Shown: piece after piece, positions 43,745-54,495 of the stretch
Position numbering within the stretch: position 1 is the first letter of the stretch
Layout: each line of letters starts with the position of its first letter
Source of the DNA: Eledone cirrhosa
Lineage: Eukaryota
DNA: 64,000 nt
Direction of reading: 5' to 3'
Assembly (NCBI GenBank): GCA_964016885.1
Contig: OZ024740.1
Span: forward strand, 231,880,001 to 231,944,000
Position numbers and translations under genes: made by a program
The notes under the pieces: generated by a model
Database searches by the model: none
Told to the model about the DNA's origin: nothing
The model's input: only the letters and a program-made list of their open reading frames with translations

Positions 43745-44158
43745 TACGGCTTCCTAAATTTTTACTCTGTAAATATACCGTGTTTCTTTGGAAATACGAA
43801 ATTTCTATACATATCTGTATACAGCTATGCTTGAAGCTAAATCCTATTTCTATTCTATCATAAGTTGAGGTAACTTATGCAGCTTCATATGCAAATGAGA
43901 TTAATCACCTTCTTTACACAGACGAGAAAACTATATATTCTCGACTGTTTTCAAGTCCAGCAGTGCAAGAGTGGAAGGGATCGTCCTGATGAGGACCAGT
44001 TAAGTCTGAAATGCATCCATGATTGTCCCCCTTGCTTCTGCTGGACACCACAAGAGGGCGTTAGGCGTGGTGTTTTTTTTTTTTGCATAGCTACGGCTTC
44101 CTAAACGTTTACCCTGTAAACTTACCGTGATTCTTTAGAAATACGAAATTTCTATACA
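43745..44158 (+). mobile_element. Non-LTR retrozyme-like element, about 1.2 units of a ~347-nt monomer
   Basis: TACGGCTTCCTAAA at 43745 and 44092; HHR at 43980-44023. Confidence 0.75.
43955..44046 (+). ncRNA. Type I HHR with extended stem I
   Basis: ATCGTC-CTGATGA-GGAC(CAGTTAA)GTCT-GAAA-TGCA-TC; outer GTCCAGCAG-TGCAAG pairs with CTTGC-TT-CTGCTGGAC. Confidence 0.8.
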
Positions 44159-44582
44159 CAGACACATATATATATATATCAATATATATATATACACACA
44201 CACACACACACACACACACACACACACACACACACACACACACACACACACACACACACACACATACATATATATATATATATATACGCCGTATTCATTC
44301 GTGTAGACGTCGAATTTTCAGACCATATATGAAGTTTAAATTTATGGTGTCGACTTTTATATGGACTACTTTTGACGGGCAAGAATCCAACATGATCAGA
44401 TATTGAACTCTCATGCTGTTTGAACAGTCATTATAACTGTGAGAAATCGTTAACCACTGCACATCTAATCGAATTCTGCATGAACGCAGAAAGGAACATA
44501 AATTTCGTTATGACGGGAAAGAAAAGCAATCACAAGAAAAAATCTAGATCAATGTTGACAATATAAAACGAACCATTATAAT

Positions 44583-44770
44583 ATAACTGTTTCTACTTTG
44601 GGCACAAGGCCAGCAATTACCCAGTACATTACTGGTACTTTATTATATCGACCCCGTAAGGATGAAAGGCAAAGTTAACCTCGGCGGGATTTGAACTCAG
44701 ACCGTAAAGGGACGTAACTATGCTGGAAAGCATGGCGTCCGACTCTCTACCAATACTGCCAATCCACCGA
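44583..44770 (-). mobile_element. Deu/Nin SINE with TSD ATTATAATATAAC
   Basis: Reverse-complement A/B boxes; duplicated flank at ~44575 and ~44774. Confidence 0.85.
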
Positions 44771-46174
44771 AATATTATAATATAACGTTAATTGATTTGG
44801 GCCTAGCTGTTATCCATAGGAGTGTTTATATCTACAAACTGTAGGCTTACTATGCGTTACTTTATGACAATTTAAATCAATATAATTAAGTACCCATATA
44901 GATATATGTTAGTCATAAGGAAATAGATTTATATGAGTCGAGTTTATATAAGAGATGGTGGTGTGATATATTGACCCAGTGATAGGATAATATGATATAT
45001 AAGGAATTTCAACTTGGGATTAGATACGTTCGTACCTGTGACTGCTTACATCTGCGAACGGCCATCGGACGAATCATAATTATAAGGCTTCCATACATTT
45101 ATAGTATGTTACAATCATTTTTAAGTTCACATTCTGAGACACGTTAATCATAGTGAAAGAAAGCATATAGGTTAGTTGGTATAAGAAGTGTTGTTGCAAT
45201 ATAACTTGTATCATATTAATTATACCACTTTTCGTTAATTAACGTGTGTGTGAATTGTCCATCAAAACACATACGGATAATAATAGGCTAAAACGGAAAG
45301 AAAAACCATTCCTACTTCGTAGCCTTTGTCCATGGAACACTTCACACACACATATAATATACTTTAACTTTAATTATATCTCATAAAATAATACAACTGG
45401 TTTTTCCACATTATACATATTGTTAGCACCCCAAACACTTAAATTGGGCTTATATTTTAATATAACCTAATGTTTGTTGAGTGAGATGGTTACCAGTCAG
45501 AGTTTAGCTTTAAACTATCTCTGTTATTGTATTAAATATATATATATATATATATATATATATATATATATATATATATATATATATTCATTTATTAAAG
45601 TTTAAGCAAAGAATTATCATTACTATATATATACACAGAGATATCCACGGTAAGTTGTGAGGTCTAGTCTGCATGAAGAACTCAATGTAATCCATATGTT
45701 GAAAATGTTGTAGGTTAAAATAAATCCCGGAAAACAATAAAACATTAAAAGGAAAACAGAGTCATGATATAAGTTAAAACAATGAAATAAAAAATCAAGT
45801 CATTAGAAATATAGTTCACTGCTTTCTAGGTGATGATAATACATGCGATCGTTTCTAGGTGATGATAATACATCGTAAATATACTTCGTTATCGATCTAT
45901 GTAAGGTTAGTTACAAAATATCAGATAAGGAGAATATTTACTTACATGCATATCACCAGCAATAATAATTTTATTCAAAATTAGTAGTAAATGACCTCAA
46001 CTAAAGTGAATTAGTTTTCATCTTAACATCATATGGAAAAAAACAATCTGATTGGTTAGTTCTTTAGCTACCTCCAAATAAGTAAAAGAACTAAACATAA
46101 TACTAATTTACTACTAAATTTTATATATATATATATATATATATATATATATATATATATATATATATATATAT

Positions 46175-46325
46175 AAAGAAAAAAAAGATGAAATCGAAAA
46201 TGCAACTGGAGTCTTATTTTTAAAAAATATATATATATTTATTTGGTTCCTTTACCGGTTTCGCAGTTCTTCTGCTTTTCAAAAGTAGAGTTGAGATGGA
46301 GGGTCTGTGGTTTTTCTCACATCTG
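46175..46325 (-). mobile_element. Single antisense arm of the CAGAT/U3-A8 HHR element (HHR at 46250-46285)
   Basis: Near-identical to 19520-19669; reverse complement reads CTT-TTGAAAA-GCAG(AAGAA)CTGC-GAAA-CCGG-TA-AAG. Confidence 0.9.
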
Positions 46326-47086
46326 AATTTGCCGACGACATAGTTTTGGTGACAAATACAGTGAAGGAGGCAGAGGATTTGATGCGGGAGGTTGAGACTG
46401 TGTCGATGAGTGTGGGGCTGAGAATGAATGAGACTAAAACAAAATATCTGGTAGAGAATGTTGAGAAGCCAGAGGGGATCACTAATGTAGGCGGGAAGCC
46501 CCTAGAATTGGTTGAGGGCTTCCTGTATTTGGGAGCAAAGATTGGGAATACGGAAGGTGATGTGGTTGAGAGGAAGAGCAAAGCCTGGGCGGCGTGCCAC
46601 AGCTTGAGATCGGTGTGGAAGTCGGACCTTCGTAAAGACCTGAAAATCCGCCTCTTCATTGCTGTAGTGGAGTCTGTGCTGCTGTATGGGACTGAGACTT
46701 GGACACTGACCAAGAAACTCACTCAGATGGTGGATGGGTGCTACACGAGAATGCTGAGGATGGCTCTGAACATTAATCAGTATACACTGAGGATGAAAAA
46801 CTCAGAGCTGTATGGGAGCATCCCAAAAGTCAGCTCAAAAGTGACACAGAGGAGACTGAGGTTAGCTGGACATGATCACCGACATCCAGAGTTGACATTG
46901 CACTCAGTGCTCCTGTGGGACACACTACATGGACACACTAGAAGAGAAAGACCAAGGTTAACATATGTTGATGCCCTAAGGACAGACACTGGTCTGTTGG
47001 AGACGCAGGACATGGCAGCGATAATGAGGGACAGAGACCGCTGGAGAGAACTCGTCCATGGATCTCGGGAATTTTACCCGTCTTAG
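46326..47086 (+). mobile_element. RTE-like LINE reverse transcriptase C-terminal fragment, uninterrupted frame
   Basis: FADDIVL...VGLRMNETKTKY...FLYLG...LKIRLF...SVLLYGTETWTL...RRLRLAGH...RPRLTYVD...MRDRDRW. Confidence 0.9.
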
Positions 47087-52626: not shown

Positions 52627-53236
52627 ATAATTGTTTCTACTTTTGGCACAAGGCCAGCAATTACTGCACTGCATTACTGGTGCTTTATTTTATCGACCCC
52701 AAAAGGCAGTTAACCTCGGCCTGATTTGAACTCAGAGTGTAAAGAGCAATAACTCTAAGCTGCAAAGCGTGGTGTCTGACGTTCTACCGATACTGCCAAT
52801 CCACCGCCTATTACTAAATAAATAATTGTTTCTACTTTTGGCACAAGGCCAGCAATTACCCAGTGCATTACTGGTACTAATTTTTCAACCCCGTAAGGAT
52901 GAAAGGCAAAGTTAACCTTGGCGGGATTTGAACCGAGAATAGAAAGGGCTATAACTCTATGCGTCAAAGCATGGCGTCCAACCCTCTACTGATACTGCCA
53001 ATCTACTAAATAAATAATGGTTTCTTATGTAGGCACAAGGCCAGCAATTTTGGGGGGAGGGAAAAGTCGATGAAATCGACCCCATTGCGTGACTGGTACT
53101 TTATTTTAACGACCCCCGTAAGGATGAAAGGCAAAGTTAACCTCGGCGGGATTTGAACTCAGATCATAAAGGGCCGTAACTCTATGCGACAAAGCATGGT
53201 GTCCGACCCTCTACCGATACTGCCAATCTACCGCCC
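52627..53236 (-). mobile_element. Tandem array of 3 Deu/Nin SINEs
   Basis: Three units separated by TACTAAATAAATAA. Confidence 0.9.
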
Positions 53237-53615
53237 TGCATAAATAATGATGGAAGTTCAGTAAGACATTGCATAGATTGTAATAGGTTGTAATATCATC
53301 TAAAGACCTTGTGATATTAATGTAGAGAGAGGCAAATTCTACAATGAACGAAATAGTCTTTAATTGTTACCATTATGCTTAGAGCACCAGATATATTTAG
53401 ATAGTGAACAAATAAGAGATTTTTCTGAAAGTCTGAATGAGTATATATGTTGTGGGAATCTTCCTATATAGGTATTTACACTAAACCCTATGTACGTCAA
53501 TTTGATTAAAACCTGCATTAGCTCAATAAACCAATGATTTTAAGATACGTTGTTAAGGGTAAGCATTTAATTCCTTCCAATTACAAAATATGGAGAAACG
53601 TTTTATACGACCGAA

Positions 53616-54052
53616 TATATATATATATATATACATATATATATATATATATATATATATATATATATATGTATATATATATACATATATATATATATAT
53701 ATATATATATACATATATATATATACATATATATATATATATGTATATATATATATATATATATATATACATATATATATATATATATATATATATATAT
53801 ATATATATATATATATATATATATATGTATATATATATACATATATATATATATATATATATACATATATATATATACATATATATATATATATATGTAT
53901 ATATATATATATATATATATATATATATATATATATATATATATATATGTATATATATATATATATATATATATATATATATATATATTTATATATATAT
54001 ATATATATATATATATATATATATATATATATATATATATATATATATATAT
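53616..54052. repeat. ~440-bp imperfect (TA)n tract
   Basis: Direct reading. Confidence 0.95.
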
Positions 54053-54054
54053 AA

Positions 54055-54495
54055 ATGTATTGGAATTTCGTATTTCTAAAGAAAGAAAGACACATTTTAA
54101 AGCCGAACCTATGCAAAAACACCAGCAGCTATTGCTCGAAGCTAAATTCTAATTCTATTCTATTATAAGTTGAGCCAATTTTTACAGTTTCATATGCAAA
54201 TAAATTGGTTACCCCATTTACACCGACGAGAAAACTATATATTCTCGAATGTTTTCAAAGTCCAACAGTTGCAAGAGCGGGCGGGATCGTCCTGATGAGA
54301 AGCAGTTCAGTTCGAAATCCATCGACGATTGCCCCCCTTGCTTCTACTGGACGGACCCTGCCAGGTGACAATACCTACTGGTGTTTTTGCATATTTACGG
54401 CTTTCTAAATGTCTATTTATAAACATACCGTATTTCTTTAGAAATACGAAATTCCAATACATATCTGTATCATGCTTGAAGCTAAATTCTAATTA
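54055..54495 (+). mobile_element. Retrozyme-like element: one ~340-nt monomer plus an inverted 5' arm (54055-54128)
   Basis: GAAGCTAAATTCTAATT at 54138 and 54478; homologous to 43745-44158; 5' arm is the reverse complement of 54375-54462 with a deletion. Confidence 0.75.
54286..54329 (+). ncRNA. Type I hammerhead ribozyme
   Basis: ATCGTC-CTGATGA-GAA(GCAGTTCAG)TTC-GAAA-TCCA-TC-GACGAT; perfect 6-bp stem I. Confidence 0.85.

Follow-up and report, generated by a model that had tools for sequence, protein, structure and literature searches.

We analyzed a 64,000-nucleotide (nt) window of the Eledone cirrhosa genome (NCBI GenBank assembly GCA_964016885.1, contig OZ024740.1, positions 231,880,001 to 231,944,000 of the forward strand) that contains two related short repeats, copy 1 at 43730-44158 and copy 2 at 54047-54503, the latter including an inverted arm. 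Both are mutated copies of a 341-nt non-coding family with a canonical type I hammerhead ribozyme motif, and they were probably copied into microsatellites by the machinery of a Penelope-like element (PLE). Judged by its sequence, the repeat has the features that define the unit of a metazoan retrozyme without long terminal repeats (non-LTR retrozyme), being small (about 170-400 nt), non-coding, repeated and furnished with a type I hammerhead. Its insertion footprint shows the published hallmarks of PLEs, namely 5′ truncation, partial tandems, a 30-40-bp tail, inverted arms and microsatellite targets. A first-pass annotation of the window had placed both loci among the small non-coding hammerhead repeats of the retrozyme kind and had linked them to PLE integration. 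The 341-nt unit, the lack of any frame longer than 83 codons in the unit trimer and the thousands of copies uphold the first point, and the inverted arm and (TA)n context uphold the second. The features of the two copies are as follows.

43730..43820, plus strand: upstream partial unit of copy 1, unit about 246/250-338 (unit-to-window blastn match; direct repeat, period 347)
43828..44158, plus strand: full unit of copy 1, unit 1-329 (blastn, trimer mapping)
43955..44046, plus strand: hammerhead domain of copy 1 (sequence; motif scan match at 43986)
44159..44290, no strand: (TA)n(CA)n(TA)n microsatellite adjoining the 3′ end of copy 1, its target-site context
53615..54053, no strand: (AT)219 microsatellite (Tandem Repeats Finder) adjoining the outer end of the inverted arm of copy 2, its target-site context
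54047..54134, minus strand: inverted 5′-truncated arm of copy 2, unit about 237-338 with an internal deletion (blastn, 74.5%)
54125..54472, plus strand: direct arm of copy 2, one full unit of subfamily A beginning a few bases ahead of unit position 1 (blastn, trimer mapping)
54260..54352, plus strand: hammerhead domain of copy 2 (sequence, alignment)
54385..54472, plus strand: 3′ domain of copy 2, unit about 252-341, with the conserved box CTAAATGT..TTATAAACATACCGTATTTCTTTAGAAATACG, a hairpin and a closing long-range stem
54473..54503, plus strand: tail of copy 2, the opening ~31 nt of the next unit, whose end falls in the second 3′-end zone described below

Unit positions refer to a well-preserved 341-nt copy (L002:1507-1847), in which cleavage is predicted between positions 191 and 192. 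The two window copies align with 83% mean column identity, and copy 1 and the direct arm of copy 2 are each slightly longer than one unit. In copy 1 the terminal direct repeat pairs 43732-43811 with 44079-44158 (80 nt, 86%, spacing 347), and in copy 2 it pairs 54133-54163 with 54473-54503 (31 nt, 90%, spacing 340), which are the periods that the first-pass annotation had read. That annotation had located both elements correctly and drawn them slightly too narrow, since copy 1 extends from 43730 and copy 2 over 54047-54503. Mapped on a trimer of the unit, copy 1 (L122 in this mapping) starts at 246 and ends at 325, covering 1.23 units in the layout 246-341 followed by 1-325; its upstream partial unit forms a pseudo-LTR-like direct repeat that starts at a T-run, a 5′-end hot spot of the family. 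Copy 2 (L032) starts at 336 and ends at 26, covering 1.09 units, and its layout is an inverted arm, one unit and a 31-nt tail. The inverted arm, which had been noticed in the first pass, lies head-to-head with the direct arm and is independently picked up by nhmmer with the 3′-domain profile (54113-54052, minus strand, E 8.4e-6).

A search of the 3.0-Gb assembly gave 3090 first-look candidates with the unit as query and 4442 with a 1.9-unit query. Each genome search scored only its best 40 matches, and the best 40 of the 3090 candidates were 84-88% identical to copy 2. The family thus comprises thousands of copies dispersed over many contigs, and the two window loci are decayed remnants of a repeat that is both abundant and ordinary. 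A candidate coding relic beginning at the ATG within CUGAUGA was rejected: 31 codons are open in one subfamily A copy (the L002 unit), and by eye the same frame in the majority line of subfamily B would stop after 4 codons.

Both copies carry the motif ATCGTC-CTGATGA-helix II-GAAA-T(G/C)CA-TC, followed by GACGAT or, in copy 1, by a degenerate CATGAT, and flanked by GTCCAGCAG..TGCAAG / CTTGC..CTGCTGGAC. The first-pass annotation had described this string, the degenerate 3′ strand of stem I in copy 1 and the outer helix extension, and all were recovered in place. Copy 1 has ATCGTC at 43980-43985, CTGATGA at 43986-43992, GAAA at 44008-44011 and TGCA-TC ending at 44017, then CATGAT; its outer extension GTCCAGCAG...CTGCTGGAC lies at 43955-43963 / 44038-44046, and cleavage is predicted after C44017. 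The corresponding elements of copy 2 are ATCGTC at 54286-54291, CTGATGA at 54292-54298, GAAA at 54314-54317 and TCCA-TC ending at 54323, then GACGAT at 54324-54329, with the outer extension reading GTCCAACAG / CTACTGGAC at 54260-54268 / 54344-54352. Here helix I is intact (ATCGTC/GACGAT) and the predicted cleavage falls after C54323. Each ribozyme has its own lesions. In copy 1, helix I contains one C-C mismatch, located beside the predicted cleavage site, and one G-U pair. In copy 2, the fourth helix II pair is broken (GAAG/GTTC), as is the helix III palindrome (TCCA for TGCA).

The hammerhead core consists of C3-U4-G5-A6-N7-G8-A9, G12-A13-A14, A15.1-U16.1 and H17. The full type I core, CUGAUGA...GAAA...UH, is present in both window copies and in the majority sequences of both subfamilies. 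Around it, inner helix I has 6-7 bp, helix II has 4 bp with a 7-nt loop, and helix III has 2 pairs and a 2-nt loop, reading AUGCAU; helix I is open, long and interrupted, with 26 pairs in our analysis model. This architecture is that of the "canonical" metazoan type I hammerhead as described in PMC4209133, with whose account the core definition above also agrees. That account describes such motifs as poor at cleavage alone and active as dimers.

We examined the helices in a ribozyme set of 67 distinct domains, 52 from subfamily A and 15 from subfamily B, to which copy 1 belongs. The helix II majority is GAAC/GTTC in subfamily A and AGAC/GTCT in subfamily B, a difference of two double compensatory changes; AGGC/GCCT forms a third variant, so that two or three helix II pairs are swapped by compensatory double changes between sub-lineages. 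Copy 1 reads GGAC/GTCT vs the subfamily B majority. The cleavage-site base H17 is C in subfamily A and A in subfamily B, both of which are permitted. Pairing statistics were taken from an alignment of 57 copies and a 32-pair model, with slid partners and 500 shuffles as controls. Hammerhead pairing was kept in 90.2% of cells vs 31-49% when partners were slid, and double-change cells numbered 34 vs 13.8 in shuffles, none of the 500 shuffles reaching 34. The scale of the recurrence in the genome and this pairing place the observation well outside what chance would give. The swapped pairs include helix II pairs 45-60 (GC 36, AU 10), 46-59 (AU 34, GC 11) and 47-57 (AU 51, GC 3) and helix I pair 31-77 (UA 47, CG 6).

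Because full-unit queries favour long copies, the insertion footprint was read from a sample anchored on the last 71 nt of the unit (271-341) with five different queries. After removal of 5 duplicates, the 106 loci gave 101 distinct arms, which were mapped on the unit trimer with BLAST ends precise to a few bases; two of these queries contributed only 10 new loci. The 3′ ends were concentrated in two zones about 40 nt apart: 14 arms ended at unit 320-341 and 71 at positions 24-40 of the next unit (36 of these at 33-40), while 12 ended between the zones and 4 elsewhere. Both zones are internal TA-rich patches. Copy 1 ends in the first zone (unit 325-329), carries no tail and adjoins (TA)n(CA)n, and the tail of copy 2 reaches the second. 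A head-to-head inverted partner arm accompanied 33 of the 101 arms. A dinucleotide repeat lay within 40 nt of the 3′ end in 67 of 101 (TA 47, CT/GA 10, CA/TG 10) vs 25 of 202 control windows taken at a distance of 1.3 kb.

These counts bear on the idea that the repeat is a short satellite spread by unequal crossing-over or replication slippage, with the hammerhead as a passenger. The partial tandem structure would suit a satellite, and such repeats have historically been termed satellites, as PMC7229834 recounts. Fixed 3′ ends, tails and inverted arms do not fit it, nor does the strong association with microsatellites relative to the control windows; the copies are scattered across many contigs, none exceeding about 2.2 units in length, and the helix II changes between subfamilies are compensatory. 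We regard a satellite origin as highly improbable.

Unlike the 3′ ends, the 5′ ends varied, with starts from unit 2 to unit 252 and 84 of the 101 arms no longer than one unit. In 20-nt bins, the 5′ ends of these 84 arms numbered 14 (232-251), 14 (212-231) and 12 (192-211), and then 4, 4, 7, 9, 4, 5, 6 and 3 in successive bins further upstream. The density therefore falls about three-fold from 192-251 (40 arms per 60 nt) to 132-191 (15 per 60 nt). Cleaved templates with trimmed ends would fit this step, as would an enzyme that stalls on the GC hairpin and on the 3′ strand of the long helix I, and the step is at most suggestive of self-cleavage. A sharp peak at the cleavage site was considered and rejected, as no more than 3 of the 101 arms begin at 191/192; two of these lie at junctions of inverted arms, and the third (L060) borders cleanly on unique DNA. 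Unit 221-252 (44047-44091 in copy 1) consists of a GC hairpin and then a T-run, with 13 T in copy 1, and the T-run at 246-252 was a 5′-end hot spot with 8 clean cases among the first 73 arms. This segment could be a reverse transcriptase stall site or a transcript boundary.

Two zones about 40 nt apart, together with twin arms, fit the scheme described in PMC11167929, from which we infer that a PLE enzyme most likely copies this non-coding RNA. As PLE biochemistry suggests, the reverse transcriptase-endonuclease would nick both strands of AT-rich or microsatellite DNA, and cDNA synthesis would begin internally, at a site around unit 335 or at one around position 35 of the unit that follows. 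The template would be an RNA longer than one unit, and the tail would be the stretch between the two start sites. Synthesis would proceed 5′-ward and often end early, in many cases within the structured segment 192-252, which lies immediately 3′ to the ribozyme core. If both nicked strands served as primers, the inverted arms could result, and reading beyond the unit junction could yield the pseudo-LTR-like direct repeats of copies 1 and 2. Hammerhead cleavage is predicted after C/A at unit position 191; it would probably be efficient only when two motifs pair through the AUGCAU palindrome of helix III. The few loci with two tandem ribozymes are predicted to release a 341-nt RNA, possibly circularized.

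In the first pass, the copies had been described as circularly permuted, and the differing start points of the two window copies had been taken as a sign of reverse transcription from a circular or multimeric RNA. A plot of genomic copies on the monomer, which that annotation had proposed, gave 5′ ends that vary as in truncation and 3′ ends in two zones. Free permutation is not borne out, as only the 5′ ends vary, and the use of the first 3′ zone by copy 1 and the second by copy 2 is what two-site PLE starts give (PMC11167929). Templates longer than one unit did stand, as 17 of the 101 arms exceeded one unit (1.03-1.40 units), so that some templates must be longer than the unit. This need could be met by a linear partial-tandem transcript, by a multimer, by template switching or by a circle, and because a PLE enzyme can use multi-copy RNA that is linear, no circular template is required.

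The alternative is that a hammerhead-processed 341-nt RNA is ligated into a circle and copied by rolling-circle reverse transcription into longer-than-unit copies with differing starts, as has been proposed for circular templates in PMC4209133 and PMC7229834. A circle route is possible in view of the seamless unit-to-unit junctions and the internal, TA-rich start zones, which make an RNA 3′ end unnecessary. It is also compatible with two-ribozyme loci: none was found among the 101 anchored arms, but the 1.9-unit query revealed two ribozyme domains, able to release unit-length RNA, in at least 12 of the 40 scored loci (the best 40 of 4442 candidates). Obligatory rolling-circle copying is argued against by the short arms, with none of the 101 reaching 1.45 units, and by the 40 scored loci of the 1.9-unit search, where the longest copy was about 2.2 units and no tandem array was found. 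Most genomic copies have at most one ribozyme and would be unable to release a circle. In vitro, moreover, linear multi-copy RNA is copied by the PLE enzyme from internal starts, and templates with a dead ribozyme are inserted just as well (PMC11167929). We therefore consider the circular route unlikely relative to PLE copying of a longer RNA. Runs X1 and X2, from one sample, gave short genomic-like contigs; their back-joining joints were tandem junctions and are uninformative on RNA.

The 3′ domain offers a candidate for what the enzyme recognizes. The unit 252-341 region, folded in L004, forms a closed module (-26.7 kcal/mol, z -4.35), and its profile matches two other non-coding families, L066 (E 4.9e-8) and L062 (E 6.2e-5). 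The modelled fold and the shared sequence suggest that it may be a shared recognition element for the reverse transcriptase. The matched small non-coding elements, at L062:2427-2870 and L066:518-628, carry the whole 3′ domain; one has twin arms and a hammerhead-like core of its own, and the other has a SINE-like (short interspersed element) upstream part. The presence of the domain in these elements suggests a portable recognition module, as far as sequence similarity indicates.

We then considered whether the copies might be 5′-truncated ends, or solo pseudo-LTRs, of an autonomous protein-coding PLE and not an independent element. Most PLE insertions are 5′-truncated ends, Xenopus retrozymes resemble PLE pseudo-LTRs according to bioRxiv 10.64898/2026.07.22.740005, and the 3′ domain is common to other small families. 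The genome yielded 10,597 first-look GIY-YIG candidates, with open reading frames (ORFs) of 412-1096 aa containing reverse transcriptase and GIY-YIG. A blastn comparison of the unit with 30 GIY-YIG loci and with 14 PLE loci of ten kb each gave nothing beyond a short 3′ box, located in small elements that are unrelated, and one spurious microsatellite match. A blastx search of the unit dimer against the PLE ORFs of the genome gave a best E of 0.045, no coding element was matched by the 3′-domain nhmmer profile, and hammerhead scans of the PLE loci found other ribozyme families and not this hammerhead. The repeat search in L091 was dominated by microsatellites. In every longer-than-unit locus seen, complete units follow head to tail with no ORF between them, and the trimer frame limit given above also speaks against a coding parent. 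Derivation from the ends of a coding element is accordingly very unlikely. The status of an autonomous PLE was likewise rejected for the repeat itself, which has no ORF with a telomerase-like reverse transcriptase and a GIY-YIG endonuclease, and the family was filed as non-autonomous. The first-pass annotation had stated that its circular reading would fail if the copies shared fixed ends and were colinear with a longer linear element. Fixed 3′ ends common to the copies were found, and a longer linear parent was not.

Several results weigh against the reading of a hammerhead repeat copied by PLE enzymes. The 44 GIY-YIG loci examined yielded no autonomous PLE that has the unit or the 3′ domain in common with the repeat. 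The family samples are best-scoring matches and not random draws, and an anchor at unit 271-341 is blind to arms that end elsewhere or do not contain that segment. In the set of 67 distinct domains, only 26 remain formally intact, and neither window copy is free of damage. Few independent events, common to related copies, underlie the compensatory changes, which therefore indicate constraint on master lineages and not on every copy. Rfam detected no hammerhead in the window at the gathering score, nor at E<=10 in six copies (copy 1, copy 2, L002, L004, L123 and L060), where the output was microsatellite-driven microRNA noise only; a helix III of only 2 bp and a helix I that is long and interrupted probably account for this. 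Minimum-energy folds of single domains did not contain the catalytic fold, the catalytic-competent fold of one copy lying 3.8 kcal/mol over the minimum, and single-domain folds are uninformative for a motif expected to work as a dimer. Ribozyme activity is a prediction from the sequence.

A bolder proposal, which we put forward tentatively and consider unlikely, is that the genome records the life cycle of a ribozyme RNA parasite: copies that start at two internal sites of a conserved 3′ domain, itself a portable "copy me" signal to a Penelope-type enzyme that other non-coding families would also carry, templates limited by the hammerhead in vivo, and rare two-ribozyme loci feeding circles. 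If this were true, the roughly three-fold drop of cDNA ends at the hammerhead cut would be fossil evidence that template cleavage in vivo limits competent copies.

Other elements of the window show related arrangements. A different hammerhead family, TTTTAT-CTGATGA...GAAA-TATATA-TA-ATAAAA, in which helix III is a short palindrome, occurs at 15830-16170 and 50060-50260; it forms a head-to-head twin-arm insertion at 15926(-)/16071(+) beside (AT)n at 16250 and a lone minus-strand arm at 50187. A third hammerhead family at 61120-61420, TACTGC-CTGAAGA-GGTCACAGCC...GAAA-TATATA-TA-GCAGAG, ends in (TA)n at 61322 and has an inverted 3′-end copy across the microsatellite; its ribozyme is also present in L094 (minus strand, 1193). 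Within 16908-18130, an ORF fragment with a weak GIY-YIG match at 17507-18130 (E 0.0012, 19.5 bits, below cut-off) is preceded by microsatellites and a perfect palindrome of about 100 nt centred at 17016. It looks like a broken N-terminal-endonuclease PLE, and its terminus matches the retrozyme 3′-domain profile only at chance level (E 1.7). Elsewhere in the genome, L094, L095, L098 and L104 represent a very abundant C-terminal-endonuclease PLE family with ORFs of 412-636 aa. In the 3′ untranslated regions below the ORF ends, close to the 3′ end of the element, this family bears the mini-hammerhead gaac-CTGAAGA-ttgcGAAAgcat-GAAA-gtac-TT|gttc.

Retroelement types other than the retrozyme also adjoin TA microsatellites in the window. 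A 263-codon frame at 46295-47259 with a weak RVT_1 match of the long interspersed element type (E 1.7e-5, below cut-off) ends directly at (AT)86. A tRNA-like SINE (GGTCGGACGCCATG...GTTCAAATCC...TTTGCCTTTCATCC) is present at 30789-31182, 36374-36656 and 54660-54750, and the copy just downstream of copy 2 has a contig word depth of about 400,000-600,000. At 1588-5142, a 3.5-kb block of CAC-rich mini- and microsatellites contains spurious long open frames on both strands.

Among the closest known systems are the metazoan non-LTR retrozymes, described by Cervera and de la Peña (2020, PMC7229834) as units of 170-400 nt with a classical type I hammerhead, such as the 350-390-bp mussel repeats, for which PLEs have been proposed as the mobilizing machinery. 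The family resembles these in its small non-coding unit, type I hammerhead, thousands of copies and co-existing PLEs. It differs from the tandem repeats and abundant circular RNAs of that account in being dispersed, mostly shorter than one unit and at most about 2.2 units long, usually with no more than one ribozyme, and in being known from genomic DNA. As in the canonical metazoan type I hammerheads of Cervera and de la Peña (2014, PMC4209133), helix I is about 6 bp long and helix II 4 bp, a small palindromic loop caps a helix III of 1-2 bp, and a dimer is expected. In the PLE "minimal" hammerheads of the same source, helix II is longer and helix I shorter, whereas the motif here is canonical with an unusually long, interrupted helix I.

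With regard to mechanism, the purified protein of the Anolis Poseidon PLE, PAc, starts reverse transcription at two adjacent internal RNA sites, leaving as a tail the interval between them, and cuts and extends both strands of an AT-rich target, its substrate being a multi-copy transcript (Frangieh et al. 2024, PMC11167929). The insertion proposed for the present family agrees with that of PAc in the two adjacent start sites, the optional tail, the cutting and extension of both strands, the AT-rich targets, the multi-copy RNA and a hammerhead upstream of the start sites. PAc is autonomous with start sites within its own ORF, in contrast to the non-coding template and microsatellite targets here, and the footprint of our family was read from sequence. 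The study of Craig et al. (2021, PMC8557442) lists among PLE hallmarks high 5′ truncation, partial tandems (pseudo-LTRs), an adjacent inverted 5′-truncated copy and a 30-40-bp tail, and names the Naiad and Hydra clades as targeting (TA)n. All of these hallmarks, including the (TA)n preference, recur in our family. According to PMC8557442, Naiads are without canonical hammerheads, whereas Hydra elements have hammerheads and target (TA)n. Non-autonomous Chlamys elements such as MRC1 are described there as having pseudo-LTRs and 3′ ends in common with their helpers.

Vertebrate retrozymes have been interpreted as non-autonomous PLE derivatives from co-occurrence and pseudo-LTR homology (Li, Clavereau and Pollet 2026, bioRxiv 10.64898/2026.07.22.740005), in a study that by its own statement covers neither other animals nor the mechanism. 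The mobility of animal retrozymes is described as unresolved in both PMC7229834 and that preprint. Our analysis adds a countable footprint from outside the vertebrates, in which two fixed start zones bound a tail of about 40 nt, arms occur as inverted twins and microsatellites are the targets. As this footprint matches that of a purified PLE enzyme in vitro, it supports PLE-mediated copying independently of parent homology. The 90-nt 3′ domain common to several non-coding families is thereby defined as a directly testable candidate recognition element. Retrozymes with PLE helpers are an already known kind, to which the 341-nt family is a new addition; our conclusion that they depend on PLEs agrees with that reached in the vertebrate study, and its basis here is the insertion footprint in place of homology to a parent element.

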